Source: Candidatus Geohabitans tengchongensis (GTDB lineage: Bacteria; Sysuimicrobiota; Sysuimicrobiia; Sysuimicrobiales; Humicultoraceae). Taken from it: DNA of 10,489 bases. Below, piece after piece: positions 1,072 through 10,489 of this stretch. The DNA is taken from NCBI GenBank assembly GCA_031459625.1, contig JAVKIH010000004.1, positions 1-10,489 of the forward strand, given 5' to 3'. Position 1 is the stretch's first letter. Each line of letters opens with the position of its first letter. Under the pieces are notes generated by a model, which worked only from the letters and a program-made list of their open reading frames with translations, did not search any database and had not been told where the DNA came from. The translations under genes were made by a program, and so were the position numbers.

Positions 1072-1096
1072 TGTCGGTTCCTATAGCGACTAGCGA

Positions 1097-1237
1097 CGAC
1101 CTTCGGGGCAGGGTGAGCCCGTAGCGGGCAATTCCCGACCGGCGGTAAAGCCCGCGAGCGGCGCGGCAGGCAGGTGCCGCGCCGCAGACCCGGTGAGATT
1201 CCGGGGCCGACGGTACAGTCCGGATGGGAGAAGGTCG
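1097..1237 (+). ncRNA. FMN riboswitch (RFN element) aptamer
   Basis: P1 CGACCTTC (1097-1104) pairs with GAAGGTCG (1230-1237). Conserved blocks are present in order: GGGGCAGGGTGA..AATTCCCGACCGGCGGT, AGCCCGCGA, GACCCGGTGAGATTCCGGGGCCGACGGT, AGTCCGGATGGGAGAAG. It lies directly upstream of ribD. Confidence 0.97.
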
Positions 1238-1341
1238 CCGGATCCCTCTGTCGCTCCCGGCGGCAGAGGCACCCGGCTATCTCCGCCCGGAGGTCATCGC
1301 TCCGGGCGGAGACGTTCCAGCCGCCCGGGGGGCAGGGAGGT
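1238..1341 (+). promoter_or_regulatory. Riboswitch expression platform: two strong hairpins before the ribD RBS
   Basis: Hairpin A CCTCTGTCGC/GCGGCAGAGG (1245-1254/1260-1269). Hairpin B is a perfect 13-bp stem, TCTCCGCCCGGAG/CTCCGGGCGGAGA (1280-1292/1300-1312). SD GGAGGT at 1336-1341. Confidence 0.6.
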
Positions 1342-1351
1342 GCCAGGCGGC

Positions 1352-2521
1352 GTGGACGGACCGCGGGCCGGGACCGAGCCGGGCGACGACGAGCGGTACA
1401 TGCGCGAGGCCCTGGCCTGGGCTCGCAAGGGGCTGGGGCGTACCAGCCCCAACCCGGCCGTGGGAGCGGTGGTCGTGCGCGACGGGCAGATCGTCGGGTG
1501 CGGCTACCACCGCCGGGCGGGCGAGCCCCACGCCGAGGTCGAGGCCCTGCGCGACGCCGGCCCGCGCGCCCGCGGCGCGACCCTCTACGTCACGCTCGAG
1601 CCCTGTCCCCACCAGGGGCGCACCGGTCCCTGCACGCGCGCCATCCTGGAGGCCGGCATCGCCCGCGTGGTCGTGGCGCTCGGCCGTGACCCCGACCCCC
1701 ACGTCGACGGCAGAGGGGTGGCGGCGTTGCGGGCGGCCGGGCTCGAGGTCACCGAGGGCGTCCTGGAAGCCGAAGCGGCCCGCCTCAACGAGGCGTACCT
1801 GAAGCACCGCCGCGCCGGGCTGCCCTTCGTCACGCTGAAGTGGGCGATGAGCCTGGACGGCCGCCTCTCCGCGCGCCCCGACGCCCCCACGCCCATCAGC
1901 GGCGCCCGCTCGTTGCGCTACGCCCACGAGCTCCGCAACGTCCACGACGCCGTGATGGTGGGGATCAACACCGTGCTCGCCGACGACCCGCTGCTTACCT
2001 GCCGCATCCCGGGCGGCCGCGACCCTGCGCGGCTGGTCCTGGACTCCCGGCTGCGCATGCCTCTCGACGCGCGCATGCTGCGCCAGCCCTCGCCGGCGCC
2101 GACGATCGTCTTCGCCGGGGAGGACGCGCCTGCGGAGCGCGCCGCGGCGCTGCGGGCGGCGGGGGCCGAGGTCGTGATCCTGCCGGGACGGCGCCCGGCC
2201 ATCCGCGCCGTGCTGGCCTGGTGCGCGGCGCGGGGGATGCTCAGCGTCATGGTGGAGGGCGGGAGTACGGTGCAGGGGGCCGTCCTGGCCGAGGGCATGG
2301 CCGACCGCGTGGCGGTCGTGGTGGCGCCGGGGCTGGTGGGCGCCCGCGACGCCCCCGCCCCCGCCGGCGGCCCCGCACCGCTCGCCGGGCGCGCGTTGCT
2401 GCGGCTGCGCGAGGTGACCGTCAGGCGGCTGGGGGAAGACGTCCTGATCGAGGGGTACCTGCCCCAGGCGCCGGAGTCGGTGGTCGGCCGGAGGACGGCC
2501 GACCTGCACCGGATGCGTTGA
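1352..2521 (+). CDS. ribD: Bifunctional diaminohydroxyphosphoribosylaminopyrimidine deaminase / 5-amino-6-(5-phosphoribosylamino)uracil reductase
   Basis: Motifs TSPNPAVGAVVV, HAE, TLEPC(PHQGRTGP)C, KWAMSLDG, GINTVLADDPLLTCR, VEGG. Start placed at GTG 1352, after GGAGGT; the ORF-track start at 1193 lies inside the riboswitch. Confidence 0.96.
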   Translation: MDGPRAGTEPGDDERYMREALAWARKGLGRTSPNPAVGAVVVRDGQIVGCGYHRRAGEPHAEVEALRDAGPRARGATLYVTLEPCPHQGRTGPCTRAILEAGIARVVVALGRDPDPHVDGRGVAALRAAGLEVTEGVLEAEAARLNEAYLKHRRAGLPFVTLKWAMSLDGRLSARPDAPTPISGARSLRYAHELRNVHDAVMVGINTVLADDPLLTCRIPGGRDPARLVLDSRLRMPLDARMLRQPSPAPTIVFAGEDAPAERAAALRAAGAEVVILPGRRPAIRAVLAWCAARGMLSVMVEGGSTVQGAVLAEGMADRVAVVVAPGLVGARDAPAPAGGPAPLAGRALLRLREVTVRRLGEDVLIEGYLPQAPESVVGRRTADLHRMR

Positions 2522-2523
2522 CG

Positions 2524-3150
2524 GTGTTCACCGGGCTCGTGGAGGGCACAGGCGACGTCCTGGCGGTGGAGGCGCGGCCGGACGGGCGGCGGTTGCGGCT
2601 GCGCGTGCCCCGTGACCTCGGGCCGGTGCAGGTGGGGGAGAGCCTGGCCGTGGACGGCGTCTGCCTGACCGTGGCCGCGCTCTCGGGCGGAGATGACGGC
2701 GACGGGCTCGTGGCCGAGTTCGACCTGGTCCCCGAGACGCTGCGCCGCACCACGCTGGGCGTCCGAGGTCCCGGCGACCGGGTGAACCTGGAGCGCCCCG
2801 TCCCGGTGGGCGGGCGGCTCGGCGGCCACCTCGTGCAGGGGCATGTCGACGGCGTCGGCACCGTCACCGCCGTGGCCGGCGAGGGTGGAGGACGGTGGCT
2901 CGAGGTGGCGCTGCCCGCGGGGCTCGAGCGCTACGTGGTGGAGCGCGGGGCGATCGCCCTGGACGGGGTCAGCCTCACGGTCGCGGCGGTGCGCGACGGG
3001 GGGCGGATCGGGGTGGCGCTGGTGCCGCACACGCTCGCCGCCACCACGCTGGGGACGAAGGCGGTGGGCGATCTCGTGAACGTGGAGGTGGACGTCGTGG
3101 CCAGGTACGTCGAGCGGCTGCTCCGGCCGGAGGACGGTGAGGGGCGATGA
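2524..3150 (+). CDS. ribE: Riboflavin synthase (alpha chain; RibE/RibC)
   Basis: GTG at 2524 gives the hallmark N-terminus MFTGLVE. Also [43 protein letters not shown]. It is the 3' part of ORF 1840..3150. Confidence 0.96.
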
Positions 3151-4376
3151 GCCAGCCCGAGACGCAGCGCGCAGGGGTCTTCGCCTCGGCCGAGGAGGCC
3201 ATCGAGGAGATCCGCCGCGGGCGCATGGTCATCGTCGTGGACGACGAGGACCGGGAGAACGAGGGCGACCTGGTGATGGCCGCCGAGGCGGTCACGCCCG
3301 AGGCCGTGAACTTCATGACGCGCTTCGGCCGCGGGCTCATCTGCGTCCCCATGCCGGCCGAGCGGCTGCGCCAGCTCGACCTGCCGCTCATGGTGGACCG
3401 CAACACCTCCCTGCACGGGACCGCCTTCACCATCACCGTGGACGTGCGCCACGGGACCACCACGGGGACGTCGGCCTTCGACCGTGCCGCCACCATCCGG
3501 GCGCTGGCCGACCCGTCGTCGCGGCCGGAGGACTTCGCCCGGCCCGGCCACATCTTCCCGCTCATGGCCATGGAGGGGGGCGTGTTGCGCCGCAGCGGCC
3601 ACACCGAGGCCGCCGTGGACCTGGCCCGCCTGGCCGGGTTCCAGCCGGTGGGCGTGCTCTGCGAGATCCTGGCCGACGACGGGACGATGGCGCGGCTGCC
3701 GCAGCTCGCCCTCTTCGCCGCGGAGCACGACCTGCGCATCGTCACCATCGCCGACCTCATCCGCTACCGGAAGGCCCGCGAGCCCTTCGTCCGCCGCGAG
3801 GGCGAGACGCGCCTGCCCACCCGCCACGGGGAGTTCCGCGCCGTCGTCTACGAGAACACGCTGGACGGGAGCAGCCACCTGGCCCTGGTGCGCGGGGAGG
3901 TGGCCGACGGGACGCCGGTGCTGGTGCGTATGCACTCGGAGTGCCTGACCGGGGACGTCTTCGGGTCGCTGCGCTGCGACTGCGGGGAGCAGCTGCAGGC
4001 GGCGCTGGCGATGATCGCACGCGAAGGGCGCGGGGTGGTCGTCTACATCCGTCAGGAAGGGCGGGGGATCGGGCTGACCAACAAGATCAAGGCCTACGCC
4101 CTGCAGGACGACGGCAAGGACACGGTGGAGGCCAACCTGCTGCTCGGCTTCCCGCCCGACCCGCGCGACTACGGGGTGGGCGCGCAGATCCTGGCCGACC
4201 TGGGCGTGCGGCAGCTGCGCCTGATCACCAACAACCCGCGCAAGCGCGCCGGGCTGGAGGGGTACGGCCTCACCGTGGTGGACCGGGTCCCCCTGGAGAT
4301 GCCGCCCAACCGCGAGAACTACCGCTACCTGCAGACGAAGCGCCACAAGCTTGGCCACCTCCTCTCCATCGACTGA
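3147..4376 (+). CDS. ribBA: Bifunctional 3,4-dihydroxy-2-butanone-4-phosphate synthase / GTP cyclohydrolase II
   Basis: [28 protein letters not shown] (RibB); [41 protein letters not shown] (RibA). ATGA overlap with the ribE stop. Confidence 0.98.
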
Positions 4377-4382
4377 GCGTCC

Positions 4383-4850
4383 ATGGGCGCGGTCTGGCAG
4401 GGGAGCGAGGACGGGCGCGGGCTGCGCATCGCCATCGTGGTGAGCCGCTACAACCTGGGCATCACCGAACGGCTATTGGCCGCCGCGGAGGCGACGCTGC
4501 GCGAGCGCGGCGCGGCGTGGGACGTGGCCTGGGTCCCGGGTGCCCTGGAATTGCCGCTCGTGGCGCGGCGCCTGGCCGCCTCCGGCGGCTACGACGCCGT
4601 GCTGGCGCTGGGGTGCGTCATCCGCGGGGAGACGGCGCACTTCGAGCACGTGGCCCGGGAGGCGGCCCACGGCCTGGCCCGGGCCGCGGACGAGACCGGG
4701 GTGCCGGTGATCAACCAGGTGCTGGCCGTCTACGACCCCGCCCAGGCGGCGGCGCGCGCCGGCGACGAGGTGAACCGCGGGCGGGAGGGGGCGCTGGCGG
4801 CCATCGCCATGGGGACGCTCATGCGCACGCTGCGCGAGGCGGGGCTGTGA
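4383..4850 (+). CDS. ribH: 6,7-dimethyl-8-ribityllumazine synthase
   Basis: IAIVVSRYN, VPGALELP, ALGCVIRGETAHFE; 155 aa; canonical operon position. Confidence 0.96.
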   Translation: MGAVWQGSEDGRGLRIAIVVSRYNLGITERLLAAAEATLRERGAAWDVAWVPGALELPLVARRLAASGGYDAVLALGCVIRGETAHFEHVAREAAHGLARAADETGVPVINQVLAVYDPAQAAARAGDEVNRGREGALAAIAMGTLMRTLREAGL

Positions 4851-6463: not shown

Positions 6464-6489
6464 ACCGTGGAGCGCCTGGCTACGTCTCT
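6460..6489 (+). promoter_or_regulatory. Putative ECF-sigma (autoregulatory) promoter CTAAAC-N17-CGTCTCT
   Basis: AAAC and CGTC with 17-nt spacing match the general ECF AAC/CGT promoter pattern. It sits about 50 nt upstream of the ECF sigma start and overlaps the amidohydrolase TAA stop. Confidence 0.6.
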
Positions 6490-6538
6490 TGAAGGGGGGA
6501 GAACGGCGGACCCCGAACCGCCGCGGCGGGAGGCGGGC

Positions 6539-7216
6539 GTGGAGGAGCAGGAGCGGTCGGCGGCCGGGCGGGGTGCGGGGCTGCCATTCGGGCGGGGTGA
6601 GGGGCTGACGGAAGAGGACGCCGGGCTGGTCGAGGCCTTCCGGCGAGGCGAGGAGAGCGCGTTTGCCGCCCTCGTCATCAAGTACCGGGAGGCGGTCTAC
6701 CGGACGGCACGGCGGCTGGTGGGCAGTCACGAGGACAGCGCCGACATCACCCAGGAAGTCTTCATCCGCGCCTACCGGGCGCTGCCGCGCTTCGACGGGC
6801 GGGCGCACCTGCGCACCTGGCTCTACCGGATCACCGTGAACCTCTGCCTCGACCTCCACCAGCAGCGCCGGCGCCAGACCTGGGTGGACCTCGAGGAGGT
6901 CACCGCCGAAGCCCCGCCCGAAGACGCCCCGGAGGCCTGCGCCGAGGCCCGCACCCTGCGGCAGGCGGTACGTGCCGCGGTGGCCGCCCTGCCGCCCAGG
7001 CAGCGGGCCATGGTGGTGCTGCGGGTCTACCAGGACCTCCCCTACGCCGAGATCGCGCGCGTCATGGGGTGCGCGGAGGGGACGGTCAAGGCGACGATGT
7101 TTGCGGCGCTGCGCAAGCTGCGCCGCCAGCTCGGAGCGGTGCTGGGAGAGGAGACGGTGGCGACGCTGACGGCAGGCCTGGGGGCGGGGGCCCGGGTGGG
7201 CGATGAGGTGCCGTAG
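6539..7216 (+). CDS. ECF (sigma-70 group 4) RNA polymerase sigma factor
   Basis: Region 2: AFAALVIKY...DITQEVFIRAYRAL..FDGRAHLRTWLYRITVNLCLD. Region 4: LPPRQRAMVVLRVYQDLPYAEIARVMGCAEGTVK. Start placed at GTG 6539 after GGAGG (6529-6533); the ORF track uses 6467. Confidence 0.95.
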   Translation: MEEQERSAAGRGAGLPFGRGEGLTEEDAGLVEAFRRGEESAFAALVIKYREAVYRTARRLVGSHEDSADITQEVFIRAYRALPRFDGRAHLRTWLYRITVNLCLDLHQQRRRQTWVDLEEVTAEAPPEDAPEACAEARTLRQAVRAAVAALPPRQRAMVVLRVYQDLPYAEIARVMGCAEGTVKATMFAALRKLRRQLGAVLGEETVATLTAGLGAGARVGDEVP

Positions 7217-7724
7217 GGCGCGGGAGCTCCTGCTGGAGGGCGTGACCGGCCGGCTGGACCCGGACCGGCGCCGGGCGCTGCTCGCGCACCTGGCCGGGTG
7301 CGAACGCTGTCGGGCCGAGGCTGCGGAGCTGGAGGAGGGCGTGGCCCTCCTCCAGGCGGTGCCCGAGCCCGTGGCACCCGAAGGCTTCTGGGGCGACTTC
7401 ATGGCCGGTCTGGAGGGACGGCTGCGAGCCGAGCCCCTCCCGCTGGGGGTACGGCTGCGCCGGTGGTTCGCGCGGCCGCCGCGCGCCCTGGGCACGGCCG
7501 CTGCCACGGCGGCGCTCGTCGCCGTGCTCACCCTGGCGCTCGGGCAGCAGCGCTCCGCCCCGCCCGAGACCACCTCTCCGCCGGGTCGGCTCGCCGCCTA
7601 CGTCACGCCGGAGGTGCGCGGCGTCCTGCCGGCCCTCAGTCACGCCGTCGAGCTCTGGCGGGCCGGCATGGGAGCCGTCGAACAGGAGCCCCTCTTCGAC
7701 GACCTGCCGCCCGCAGCCCCGTGA
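7203..7724 (+). CDS. Zinc-finger (zf-HC2 / ZAS) membrane-anchored anti-sigma factor
   Basis: N-terminal C...HLAGCERC (HxxxCxxC), a single hydrophobic helix (ALGTAAATAALVAVLTLAL) and a short extracytoplasmic tail. Overlaps the sigma gene 3' end; SD-like GGTGG upstream. Confidence 0.9.
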   Translation: MRCRRARELLLEGVTGRLDPDRRRALLAHLAGCERCRAEAAELEEGVALLQAVPEPVAPEGFWGDFMAGLEGRLRAEPLPLGVRLRRWFARPPRALGTAAATAALVAVLTLALGQQRSAPPETTSPPGRLAAYVTPEVRGVLPALSHAVELWRAGMGAVEQEPLFDDLPPAAP

Positions 7725-8218
7725 CCACGCTCAGGCGGGCCGCCTTCGCGCTGGCGGTGGCGCTGCTGCTGGTCCCACTGCCGGCGCTGAGCCAGCCGCC
7801 CACCCCCAACCCGCGCGCCGAGCGCATCATCGAGGCCCTGCTCATCTGGCGGCTGGTCGACGAGCTGGACCTGACGGAGGCGCAAATCGCCCGCATCTTC
7901 CCGCGCATCAAGACCCTCAAGGAGATCCGCCTCCAGCTGGGCCGACAGGCGCTGATCCTGCGCGAGGAGCTGCGGGCGCTGCTGCGGCAGCGGCCGCGCG
8001 ACGAGGCGGCCATCCGGGCCAAGGTGGCCGAGCTGGACGCGCTGCGCCGGGAGATCGAGACCCGGCGGGAGCGGGTGCTGCGGGAGATCCGTGCGGCGCT
8101 CACGGTGGAGCAGCAGGCGCGCTTCGTGCTGATCCAGGAGCGGTTCGAGGCGGAGACGCTGCGCCTGCTGGAGGAGGTCCGTCGGCTGGTCGAGCAGGGC
8201 GGCGGCGGGCGGCAGTAG
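7721..8218 (+). CDS. Secreted Spy/CpxP/ZraP-like helical protein (LTxxQ motifs), 165 aa
   Basis: GTGA overlap with the anti-sigma stop. Signal peptide MTTLRRAAFALAVALLLVPLPALS-Q. LDLTEAQ and LTVEQQARF motifs flank a coiled coil with 'ELRALL....DEAAIRAKVAELDALR'. Confidence 0.8.
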   Translation: MTTLRRAAFALAVALLLVPLPALSQPPTPNPRAERIIEALLIWRLVDELDLTEAQIARIFPRIKTLKEIRLQLGRQALILREELRALLRQRPRDEAAIRAKVAELDALRREIETRRERVLREIRAALTVEQQARFVLIQERFEAETLRLLEEVRRLVEQGGGGRQ

Positions 8219-8316: not shown

Positions 8317-8517
8317 TCACCGGGCCGGGGCCGCCGGACCCTCCTCTTCCACCAGGTACTCGCTCTTCCGGTAGGTGGCCCGCACCCCACAGTGCGGGCA
8401 GGTGTGGTAGTTGGCCGCCAGCGTCCCCTGCTCGAAGGACCGGCGGTCCATGCGCCGGCCGGTGAAGTAGGTGCGGCCGCAGGCCTTGCAGACGACGGAA
8501 AGCCGCAGCTTGCCCAC
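8317..8517 (-). CDS. Small zinc-ribbon protein (66 aa)
   Basis: GTG at 8517 overlaps the TAG of the upstream gene (TAGTG). MGKLRLSVVCKACGRTYFTGRRMDRRSFEQGTLAANYHTCPHCGVRATYRKSEYL contains two CxxCG knuckles. Confidence 0.8.
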   Translation of the reverse strand: MGKLRLSVVCKACGRTYFTGRRMDRRSFEQGTLAANYHTCPHCGVRATYRKSEYLVEEEGPAAPAR

Positions 8518-8957
8518 TAGTCGCCCGGCCCGGGGCCCTCGCGCCCCTTCGGAGGCGAAGCGACGCGTCCCTCTGAAGGTGAAGCGACGGCCTCGGGGTG
8601 CGCCTGCAGGAAGCTCTCCACCTCGGCGGCGCGCCACAGCCGCCGGTCGCCGTTGGCGAAGAGCGGGGCGGGGAATGCGGGGTGCGCCGCCACCGTTTCC
8701 AAGAAGGTGCGGGGGTGGAGGCCGAGCCGCTCCGCCACCTCGACCGGGCTCACGACCTCCTCGCCCGCAGCCACCAGGCGCGCCACGGCGGCGACGAACG
8801 AATCGCCGGCGGACGGCCGCCTGAGGAGGAAGTCGATCGCCGAGATGCCCCGCGGGTGGGCCTGCTTGATCAGGTTGCTGTAGTGGCGCAGCTCGTCGGG
8901 GTATCCTCTCAGATGGCGGAGGACCAGGGTGTCGCGGACCAGTGGGTCGTCCATCAC
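8517..8957 (-). CDS. Hypothetical protein with C-terminal AlpA/excisionase-like HTH domain
   Basis: VSPVEVAERLGLHPRTF....AHPAFPAPL....RRLWRAAEVESFL matches the AlpA-type 'EVA..LG.....FP.P.....R.W...EV' pattern. It is preceded by an unrecognised ~65-aa helical domain. Start is GTG 8957 or ATG 8954. Confidence 0.75.
   Translation of the reverse strand: MMDDPLVRDTLVLRHLRGYPDELRHYSNLIKQAHPRGISAIDFLLRRPSAGDSFVAAVARLVAAGEEVVSPVEVAERLGLHPRTFLETVAAHPAFPAPLFANGDRRLWRAAEVESFLQAHPEAVASPSEGRVASPPKGREGPGPGD
8542..8589. repeat. Imperfect 24-bp tandem duplication (2 copies)
   Basis: cgccccttcggaggcgaagcgacg / cgtccctctgaaggtgaagcgacg, 19/24 identical; encodes VASPSEGR-VASPPKGR in the tail of the AlpA-like protein. 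Confidence 0.7.
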
Positions 8958-8995
8958 AGTACGAGGATGATCATCGCCCCATCGAGGAGCATAGC

Positions 8996-9748
8996 ATGCC
9001 CTTCCTGACCGACCGGGACGCCGAGGTGATCCGCCGACGCTTCGCCGCCGACCTGGAGGCGCCGGTGCGCCTGCTGCTCTTCCTGCCCACCCTGGGCGGG
9101 CTCGCCCTCGCCGGGCAGGACTCGGAGATCCCCGAGTACACCCGCCGCCTGGTGCACGAGGTGGCCGCGCTCTCGGACCGGCTCCGGGTCGAGGAGGCCA
9201 GCCTGGTCTCCCAGGGCGACCTGGCCGCCCGCTACGGGGTGGCCTACGCGCCGACGCTGGTCTTCCTGCGGGAGACCGACGGCGGCCCGCCCCAGGACCT
9301 GGGGCTGCGCTACGTGGGGCTGCCCGGCGGGTACGAGCTGGTGACGCTGCTGGAGATGGTCATCGGCGTCTCCCGCGGCCGCCCCGACCTAGCCCCTGAG
9401 ACGGTGGCGCGGCTGGAGGGGCTCGGCCGCGACGTGCACCTGCAGGTCTTCGTCACCCCCACCTGACCACACTGTCCCCGCGCGGCCAGGCTGGCCGCGC
9501 ACCTGGCCATCGCCTCCCCGCGCGTGCGCACGGACGTCGTGGAGGTCTCCGAGTTCCCGGACCTGGCGCAGCGGTACAACGTCTATGCCGTGCCGAAGAC
9601 GGTGGTGAACGACGCCTACGAGATCGTGGGGGCCCTGCCCGAGCGGCAGTTCGTGGAGGCGGTGCTGCGTGGGGCGGAAGGTCAGGAGGCCGAGGGGGAG
9701 GGGTCGGACACCGCGGGGGAGACCACCCCGATCGAGTCCGACGGCTGA
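8996..9748 (+). CDS. Selenocysteine-containing protein disulfide oxidoreductase (PDO / AhpF N-terminal-domain-like, two thioredoxin folds), 250 aa, Sec157
   Basis: SD GAGGAG (8984-8989) precedes ATG 8996. ORFs 8942..9466 and 9524..9748 are in the same frame, separated only by TGA 9464-9466. Read-through gives VFVTPT-U-PHCPRAARLA...EVSEFPDLAQRYNVYAVPKTVVN, where the family normally has VFVTPTCPYCP. The family motif RY.G.P.GYE is also present. Confidence 0.9.
9480..9500 (+). promoter_or_regulatory. Putative bacterial SECIS element
   Basis: Perfect stem GCGCGGCCA/TGGCCGCGC with a G-containing apical loop (GGC, or AGGCT if the closing A-U is open). The stem starts 13 nt after the UGA and the loop is ~22 nt from it, which fits general bacterial SECIS geometry. 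Confidence 0.75.
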
Positions 9749-10059
9749 AGCGCGTCGACCTCTCCGACCTGCCGAAATGGGTCAGTCTCCGCTGCCCGCA
9801 TCGCCTTCAGGCGTCGGGCCAGGGCCACGCCCAGCGGCGTGAGGCAGTACGTCCCGCTCCCGGCCTCGTACTGGAAGAGCCCGTGCAACCGTCCGTGCCA
9901 GCACCCCCGCCGCACCTGCAGCTCGTTGAGGCCGGTGAGGGCGCCCAGCGCATCCCCCGGGACCCCGCGGCGGAACCAGGCTTGGCGGTCGAGGAGGGCG
10001 AGGGCGATCTGCTCGGCCCAGTCGTTGATGGTGTGGTAGGGCGTCTTCGGTACGGCCAT
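9682..10059 (-). CDS. Hypothetical protein, winged-helix-like (125 aa)
   Basis: ATG 10059 follows GGAGG. The pattern 'LGALTGLNELQVRRGC.....HGLF......YCLTPLGVALARRL' resembles wHTH recognition helix, wing and 'LT..G' motifs. The 3' end overlaps the selenoprotein 3' end by 67 nt. Confidence 0.65.
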   Translation of the reverse strand: MAVPKTPYHTINDWAEQIALALLDRQAWFRRGVPGDALGALTGLNELQVRRGCWHGRLHGLFQYEAGSGTYCLTPLGVALARRLKAMRAAETDPFRQVGEVDALQPSDSIGVVSPAVSDPSPSAS

Positions 10060-10228: not shown

Positions 10229-10489
10229 TCACCGACCGCCGGCGCCCCCGCGCCACCGCCAGTAGCAGGCGATCGTCCCCGCGCGCAGGTAGGGGTGGGC
10301 GTCCCCGAAGCGGCCCGCGGCGATGAAGGCTTCGACGTCGGCAGGCGGCGCCAGGCGGACCTCGGCGATTTCGCCGGCATCCTCGGGGCGCAGCTCGCCG
10401 CCTGCGGCGAGGGCGGCAAAGACCGTGGTGGTGGACTCGACCACGCCCGCCTGCGGGGCCACGCGCCCTGTCTGGATCACGCCCAGGGG
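10229..10489 (-). CDS. C-terminal part of a probable Nudix-fold hydrolase (starts beyond the right edge)
   Basis: Frame open to the window end: PLGVIQTGRVAPQAGVVESTTTVFAALAAGGELRPEDAGEIAEVRLAPPADVEAFIAAGRF. The 'VF.A....GEL....EI.EVR' pattern is typical of post-Nudix-box strands, but the Nudix box itself is not in the window. Confidence 0.55.
   Translation of the reverse strand, partial: PLGVIQTGRVAPQAGVVESTTTVFAALAAGGELRPEDAGEIAEVRLAPPADVEAFIAAGRFGDAHPYLRAGTIACYWRWRGGAGGR

Follow-up and report, generated by a model that had tools for sequence, protein, structure and literature searches.

The window analysed here, a contig stretch of 10,489 nt, contains a 250-codon reading frame on its forward strand (8996..9748) that, when an internal TGA is read through, encodes a two-domain thioredoxin-fold protein of the TIGR02187 family, according to its translation, a profile search and a structure model. 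The frame begins at ATG 8996, with a Shine-Dalgarno-like GAGGAG, presumably functional judging from its sequence, 6 nt upstream (8984..8989, +). The internal TGA (9464-9466) is codon 157 in the context VFVTPT(TGA)PHCP, and 93 further open codons follow before the frame terminates at TGA 9746-9748. A preliminary description of this DNA had placed the TGA at the first Cys of a C-terminal CxxC and considered the gene to be split by standard gene calling, and both statements are confirmed. In particular, table-11 calling produces two ORFs (8942-9466 and 9524-9748), the second of which starts at a GTG located 19 codons 3′ of TGA157 and so excludes the invariant PHCP. The same split recurs in databases; among the matches listed, 16 of 120 homologues stop at ...TPT with lengths of 150-160 aa, indicating truncation at the codon equivalent to TGA157. 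Moreover, contigs from two other studies cover positions 9380-9600 with 3 and 10 differences, none of which is listed in the TGA or in the hairpin that follows it.

The 93 residues downstream of the TGA had all been regarded as family-like. Their codons are indeed open, but the profile match ends at residue 224, leaving about 67 family-like residues, while the last ~26 form an acidic, poorly conserved tail (9668..9748, +) that the alignment and the model (pLDDT about 50) predict to be disordered. For 67 nt the tail overlaps the 3′ terminus of an ORF that runs convergently (9682-10059, −) and belongs to no known family; homologues of this ORF (47-64% identity) sit downstream of the selenoprotein gene in the closest relatives. 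Neither a sigma-70 promoter nor an intrinsic terminator was found within 8850-9900. A metatranscriptome contig contains the whole stretch, but as it includes genes of both strands, originates from the study that also produced the possible source DNA and may be DNA carry-over, it is not counted as expression.

The read-through protein matches TIGR02187 (PDO_seleno_TRX) with 215.3 bits against a cut-off of 185, aligning residues 6-224 with profile positions 2-207 of 209. An alignment-based model (mean pLDDT 91.4) has two tandem thioredoxin folds, and its best structural matches are the PDOs 1a8l (Foldseek E 3e-22), 2ywm and 2ayt, followed by AhpF N-terminal domains. The PDOs of thermophiles (P. 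furiosus 1a8l, P. horikoshii 1j08 and A. aeolicus 2ayt/2ywm) likewise have two thioredoxin folds, with TM-scores by target of 0.85-0.88 to the model at 28-35% identity. They share with this protein a C-terminal TPT-[C/U]PxC and two motifs, AP at 85-86 and VP at 199-200, that are presumably of the cis-Pro type. In alignments with the Pyrococcus structures (1a8l, 1j08), TGA157 falls on the leading Cys of CPYC, so that the anticipated alignment with the catalytic Cys holds and the active site reads U-P-H-C (9464..9475, +), comprising the predicted selenocysteine (Sec157) and Cys160. In contrast to the attacking Cys of the thermophile PDOs, Sec takes its place here; and whereas those proteins carry an N-terminal CxxC (CQYC, CESC), the corresponding residues 43-46 (9122..9133, +) read S-E-I-P in the alignments, resulting in one site rather than two. 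Cys160 is the sole Cys of the whole protein.

The AhpF N-terminal domain (1zyn, 1hyu, 5h29) has the same double fold as this protein and a single redox site, located in its second fold. However, AhpF is fused to a TrxR-like flavoprotein, no such fusion exists in the 250-aa ORF, the AhpF profiles score far below their cut-offs (45.3 vs 502.9 bits for TIGR03140 and 70.7 vs 687.65 bits for TIGR03143), and the protein sequence is nearer to PDOs than to AhpF. The earlier label of a PDO/AhpF-NTD-like oxidoreductase is thus borne out by the TIGR02187 match and the PDO-like fold, but it had overlooked the missing N-terminal CxxC. Classical PDOs, as described in a passage of PMC7465337, have a CxxC in each fold. 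Because the N-terminal position reads SEIP and Cys160 is the only Cys, the protein, a member of TIGR02187, is not a classical two-site PDO.

A homologue search across 41 genomes (the organism's own and 40 relatives) found matches in 36 of them. The loci returned from the own genome and its relatives number 30, and TGA is kept at codon 157 in 28 of these orthologues, the other two having TGT; the TGA codon is common to 27 loci of relatives whose identities are 46-63%. Family-wide, a census of 96 distinct sequences from 110 loci contains 51 with TGA and 45 with Cys at this codon. Relaxed selection 3′ of the TGA, which the preliminary description had regarded as evidence against a selenoprotein, was looked for across 26 TGA loci without an N-site Cys (L034 and L036 left out), and the reverse pattern appeared. 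Amino-acid identity increases from 0.62 upstream of the TGA to 0.76 downstream, and pN/pS is 0.33-0.35 downstream versus 0.46 upstream (uncorrected ratios, with synonymous sites near saturation).

The tight hairpin reported after the TGA is real, and it resembles a bacterial SECIS element: a 9-bp stem (9480..9500, +), identified by folding and conservation, with arms at 9480-9488 and 9492-9500 and a GGC loop (9489-9491) that begins 22 nt after the TGA. The bacterial SECIS model of PMC13188914 specifies a loop of 3-9 nt with a G in its first two positions, a stem of 4-16 bp and a distance of 16-37 nt between the UGA and the loop, and the 3-nt GGC loop, 9 bp and 22 nt found here lie within these constraints. 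The folding energy alone is modest (z of -1.3 to -2.5 over four windows), and the support comes more strongly from conservation in the form of synonymous constraint. In particular, pS is 0.015 over the hairpin codons 163-167 compared to ~0.54 elsewhere. Further, Arg165 is encoded by AGG in 27 of 28 Sec loci, a codon that accounts for 4.2% of Arg codons in the genome's long ORFs and for 15 of 456 at the other Arg sites of these genes. The two Cys (TGT) loci do not have the hairpin motif. Across 14 hand-picked sequences, 89.7% of cells pair, both partners vary in 3 of the 9 base pairs, and the covariation score of 0.160 is reached by 0 of 500 shuffles; relatedness among the sequences and the derivation of the structure from the present one inflate this control. 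No clear hairpin consensus was found among the hairpin-divergent Sec locus L034 and the genome's other predicted selenoprotein genes.

The genome, which is 94% complete, encodes the entire Sec machinery, in agreement with the earlier proposal that the organism decodes Sec: selA (561 bits), selB (362), tRNA-Sec (78.7) and selD (375) each score above their own cut-off. The genes for selA, selB and tRNA-Sec lie within 5 kb on one contig (C23), and selD, located on another (C1), itself carries one in-frame TGA within CAG-U. Across the own genome and its 40 relatives, selA scores above cut-off in 37 of 41. Counting against the Sec reading, three of the 27 relatives that carry the TGA form lack a selA match above cut-off: G022 (59% complete), G029 (72% complete, with a partial match) and G037 (93% complete). 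One further relative (G028), rated 100% complete, has selA matches in three overlapping pieces and only a Cys PDO, possibly because Sec use is being lost there or because of errors in sequencing; this combination counts in favour of the Sec reading.

These observations make it very likely, as far as comparative sequence data can indicate, that the locus is one gene whose internal TGA encodes selenocysteine, and the hairpin is very probably a binding site for SelB-GTP-Sec-tRNA that would insert Sec157. If the TGA were instead a true stop, the locus would be a pseudogene or would encode two separate polypeptides, as the two ORFs from standard calling and the truncated half present in databases might suggest. 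That explanation is very improbable when the retention of the TGA by relatives at 46-63% identity is considered together with the purifying selection that persists immediately downstream and the synonymous constraint on the hairpin; moreover, a stop would sever the C-terminal fold at the active site, and the downstream GTG ORF would have to function without the invariant PHCP. Still more improbable, with nothing found in its favour, is a genome-wide reassignment of TGA to Trp, Gly or Cys, or a sequencing error. This gene and many others terminate in TGA directly before the start of the next gene, and tRNA-SeC is the only TCA-anticodon tRNA among the genome's 52 tRNAs, which together argue against reassignment. 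Likewise, no difference at the codon is listed for the contigs of the two other studies, and TGA is common to the 27 loci of relatives; on this sequence comparison TGA157 is neither a sequencing error nor a private mutation.

The census shows how the N-terminal site is distributed in the family. Among the 96 distinct sequences, 40 are Cys forms with the N-terminal site, 36 are Sec forms without it and 12 are Sec forms that have it, while the remainder consists of 5 Cys forms without the site and 3 Sec forms with one Cys. All 36 Sec forms without the site fall into one clade (SH-aLRT 97, from a quick tree only), so that they represent one loss event and not 36. The clade consists mainly of Sysuimicrobiota (CSP1-3) genomes; its named members carry the labels CSP1-3, Ca. 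Sysuimicrobiota, Armatimonadota and ANGP1 or simply 'bacterium', which makes Sysuimicrobiota the likely phylum of the window's genome. Like the catalogued PDO_seleno_TRX family, the protein scores above the family cut-off and has a single Sec in a C-terminal UxxC followed by an in-frame downstream hairpin; it differs in having no N-terminal CxxC, which 12 of the 15 Sec forms outside the clade keep. The site is also absent, independently, from 5 Caldisericota Cys forms, and 7 of 104 full-length database proteins are without it; among these seven, P0003 resembles a Cys counterpart of the clade. A rule tying loss of the N-terminal site to Sec is therefore rejected, given these further losses and the 12 Sec forms in which the site is retained. 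Four relatives (G004, G014, G025 and G031) have both this form and a two-site Cys paralogue, and the own genome has one PDO match only. The paralogue (L132-L141, e.g. L135:911-3189) has a gene neighbourhood of its own, which includes a CsoR/RcnR-like repressor (PF02583), an OsmC-like protein and Hsp20.

The preferred reading, with a probability of about 0.88, is that UGA is recoded to Sec by SelA/B/C/D and the hairpin, and that the 250-residue product is a cytoplasmic disulfide reductase acting through its single U-P-H-C site; we infer, as did the preliminary description, a functional selenoenzyme from its sequence. By analogy with characterised proteins, a catalytic cycle can be proposed whose redox steps are probable, though with less confidence than the recoding itself. 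SelB would read the hairpin, resulting in the insertion of Sec157, and the Sec157 selenolate would attack a substrate disulfide; Cys160 would then resolve the intermediate to yield a selenenylsulfide, and the genome's NADPH thioredoxin reductase would re-reduce the U-P-H-C site. The Cys-free N-terminal fold would contribute structure and partner binding, a role for which the AhpF N-terminal domain offers a parallel. Reductase activity is likelier than isomerase activity because there is a single site; according to a passage of PMC7465337, the C-terminal site of PDOs carries out thiol transfer and isomerase activity needs both sites. Passages of PMC7465337 and PMC7278568 describe S. solfataricus PDOs that relay electrons from TrxR to peroxiredoxins, and the genome has one TrxR above cut-off and 6 AhpC-TSA domains. 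Peroxiredoxins are plausible substrates, though they are candidates, none of them tied to this gene.

The protein could also be a selenoprotein that is not a general reductase fed by TrxR, but one that has a dedicated partner, that draws on another reductant (a low-molecular-weight thiol, persulfide or metalloid chemistry), or that acts as a single-site oxidase or isomerase. This is distinctly less likely than the TrxR-fed reductase, and several observations lend it some weight. When the gene clusters were read by eye, no redox partner, whether TrxR or Prx, was recognised as a conserved neighbour; a separate thioredoxin gene adjoins the genome's TrxR gene, and TrxR therefore need not serve this protein. 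The loop at the lost N-terminal site, GLAxPGxDxxxxEY, is strongly conserved in the clade and Cys-free, which suggests a specific interaction, and a passage of PMC7278568 reports substrate specificity for a SurR-reducing PDO. In contrast, characterised PDOs take electrons from TrxR, and the stated need for both sites argues against the isomerase variant.

Upstream, two syntenic genes are arranged head-to-head with the selenoprotein gene, separated from it by 38 bp. The first (8517..8957, −) encodes a protein of ~146 aa that probably contains an excisionase/AlpA-like HTH (PHROGs E 2e-6, with further atlas leads) in addition to an N-terminal region of unknown type; the second (8317..8517, −) encodes a CxxC...CxxC zinc-ribbon-like protein of ~66 aa that belongs to no named family. 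Invariant-looking motifs of the pair are HLRG[YF]..L..(Y/F)..L.K...P and GT.A.NYH.CP.CG. Each gene lies beside 35 of the 36 Sec loci without the N-terminal site, 1 of the 3 Sec loci with one Cys and 0 of the 57 others. The pair is single copy in the own genome, and its two genes were found in 35 and 36 of the 41 genomes searched; in four genomes of the organism's own family (G002, G013, G020 and G005) none of the three genes was matched, though selA is present. In all nine regions from other families, one or both genes of the pair stand away from any PDO, and an obligate three-gene module is rejected on this account (PDO match in 0/9). As the pair also occurs without a PDO, the link is explained by inherited synteny, and any sign of a redox neighbourhood is no more than a hint. 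In these sister lineages the pair lies near superoxide dismutase or tRNA-like sequence, and 5 of the 9 regions contain a gene resembling Fe/Mn superoxide dismutase close by (by eye, one Pfam-confirmed).

A more elaborate scenario, which is speculative and unlikely, is that in a branch of the Sysuimicrobiota a PDO paralogue gave up the N-terminal CxxC, relied on a single Sec site instead and turned into a dedicated reductase, the two-site Cys PDO being kept elsewhere in some genomes. It would then have been recruited head-to-head to the uncharacterised HTH and zinc-ribbon pair, the neighbour of superoxide dismutase in some sister lineages; this pair would act as a novel redox-sensing regulator, and its zinc ribbon would be the substrate of the Sec enzyme.

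Elsewhere in the window, an ECF sigma factor, a zf-HC2 anti-sigma factor and a Metal_resist/CpxP-like periplasmic protein (6467-8218, +) are syntenic with the locus in several relatives. Read by eye, positions 1090-4850 (+) hold a riboflavin operon (ribD, ribE, ribBA and ribH-like ORFs), whose leader may be an FMN riboswitch. The ORFs of the first ~1 kb (1-1086) are less GC-biased in amino-acid make-up than the rest, and this portion is possibly foreign DNA. At the opposite end (10229-10489, and contig C34 past the window), the end of a likely NUDIX-type gene, recognised by eye, occurs twice, flanking an N gap that lies just outside the window, probably as a scaffolding artefact.

Other likely selenoproteins with an in-frame TGA occur in the genome (loci L154-L158; C1:5930(+), C20:5511(+), C1:343470(+), C10:13890(-) and C12:267392(-)): SelD (CAG-U), a presumably arsenite-methyltransferase-like protein (WAG-U), DUF3179 (U-PLC), an LMWPc/ArsC-like protein (U-VGNTARS) and a class I SAM methyltransferase (U-C). 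The four besides SelD also have Pfam matches, which in DUF3179 and LMWPc extend across the TGA, in keeping with Sec use by this genome. Motif-only and hairpin-only scans returned 891 and 405 candidates, too noisy in a 73% GC genome. A dicodon scan returned 79 candidates, mostly adjacent genes; since it missed both this gene and selD, the list of the selenoproteome is incomplete.

The gene belongs, under a wrong annotation, to a selenoprotein family that had been catalogued before, and its modest lineage-specific twist is the single redox site. Two reviews list the family as a predicted selenoprotein (PMC13188914, PMC1794560), the latter from 2006 and for Carboxydothermus and Symbiobacterium. 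The likely lineage, Sysuimicrobiota, is not named in the main text of PMC13188914, and the main text of the phylum's description (PMC11604079) contains no word beginning with 'selen'. Nothing on point for a described single-site PDO was found in the literature, which is weak evidence given partial coverage. An understanding of Sec decoding is unchanged by this gene. Its recognition corrects the annotation, as databases contain only a half of 150-160 aa without the active site, and it shows selA to be widespread in an uncultured group (37 of 41 genomes above cut-off). Further, some genomes contain a single-site Sec form together with a two-site Cys form, a natural pair with which the separate contributions of Sec and of the second site could be cleanly tested.
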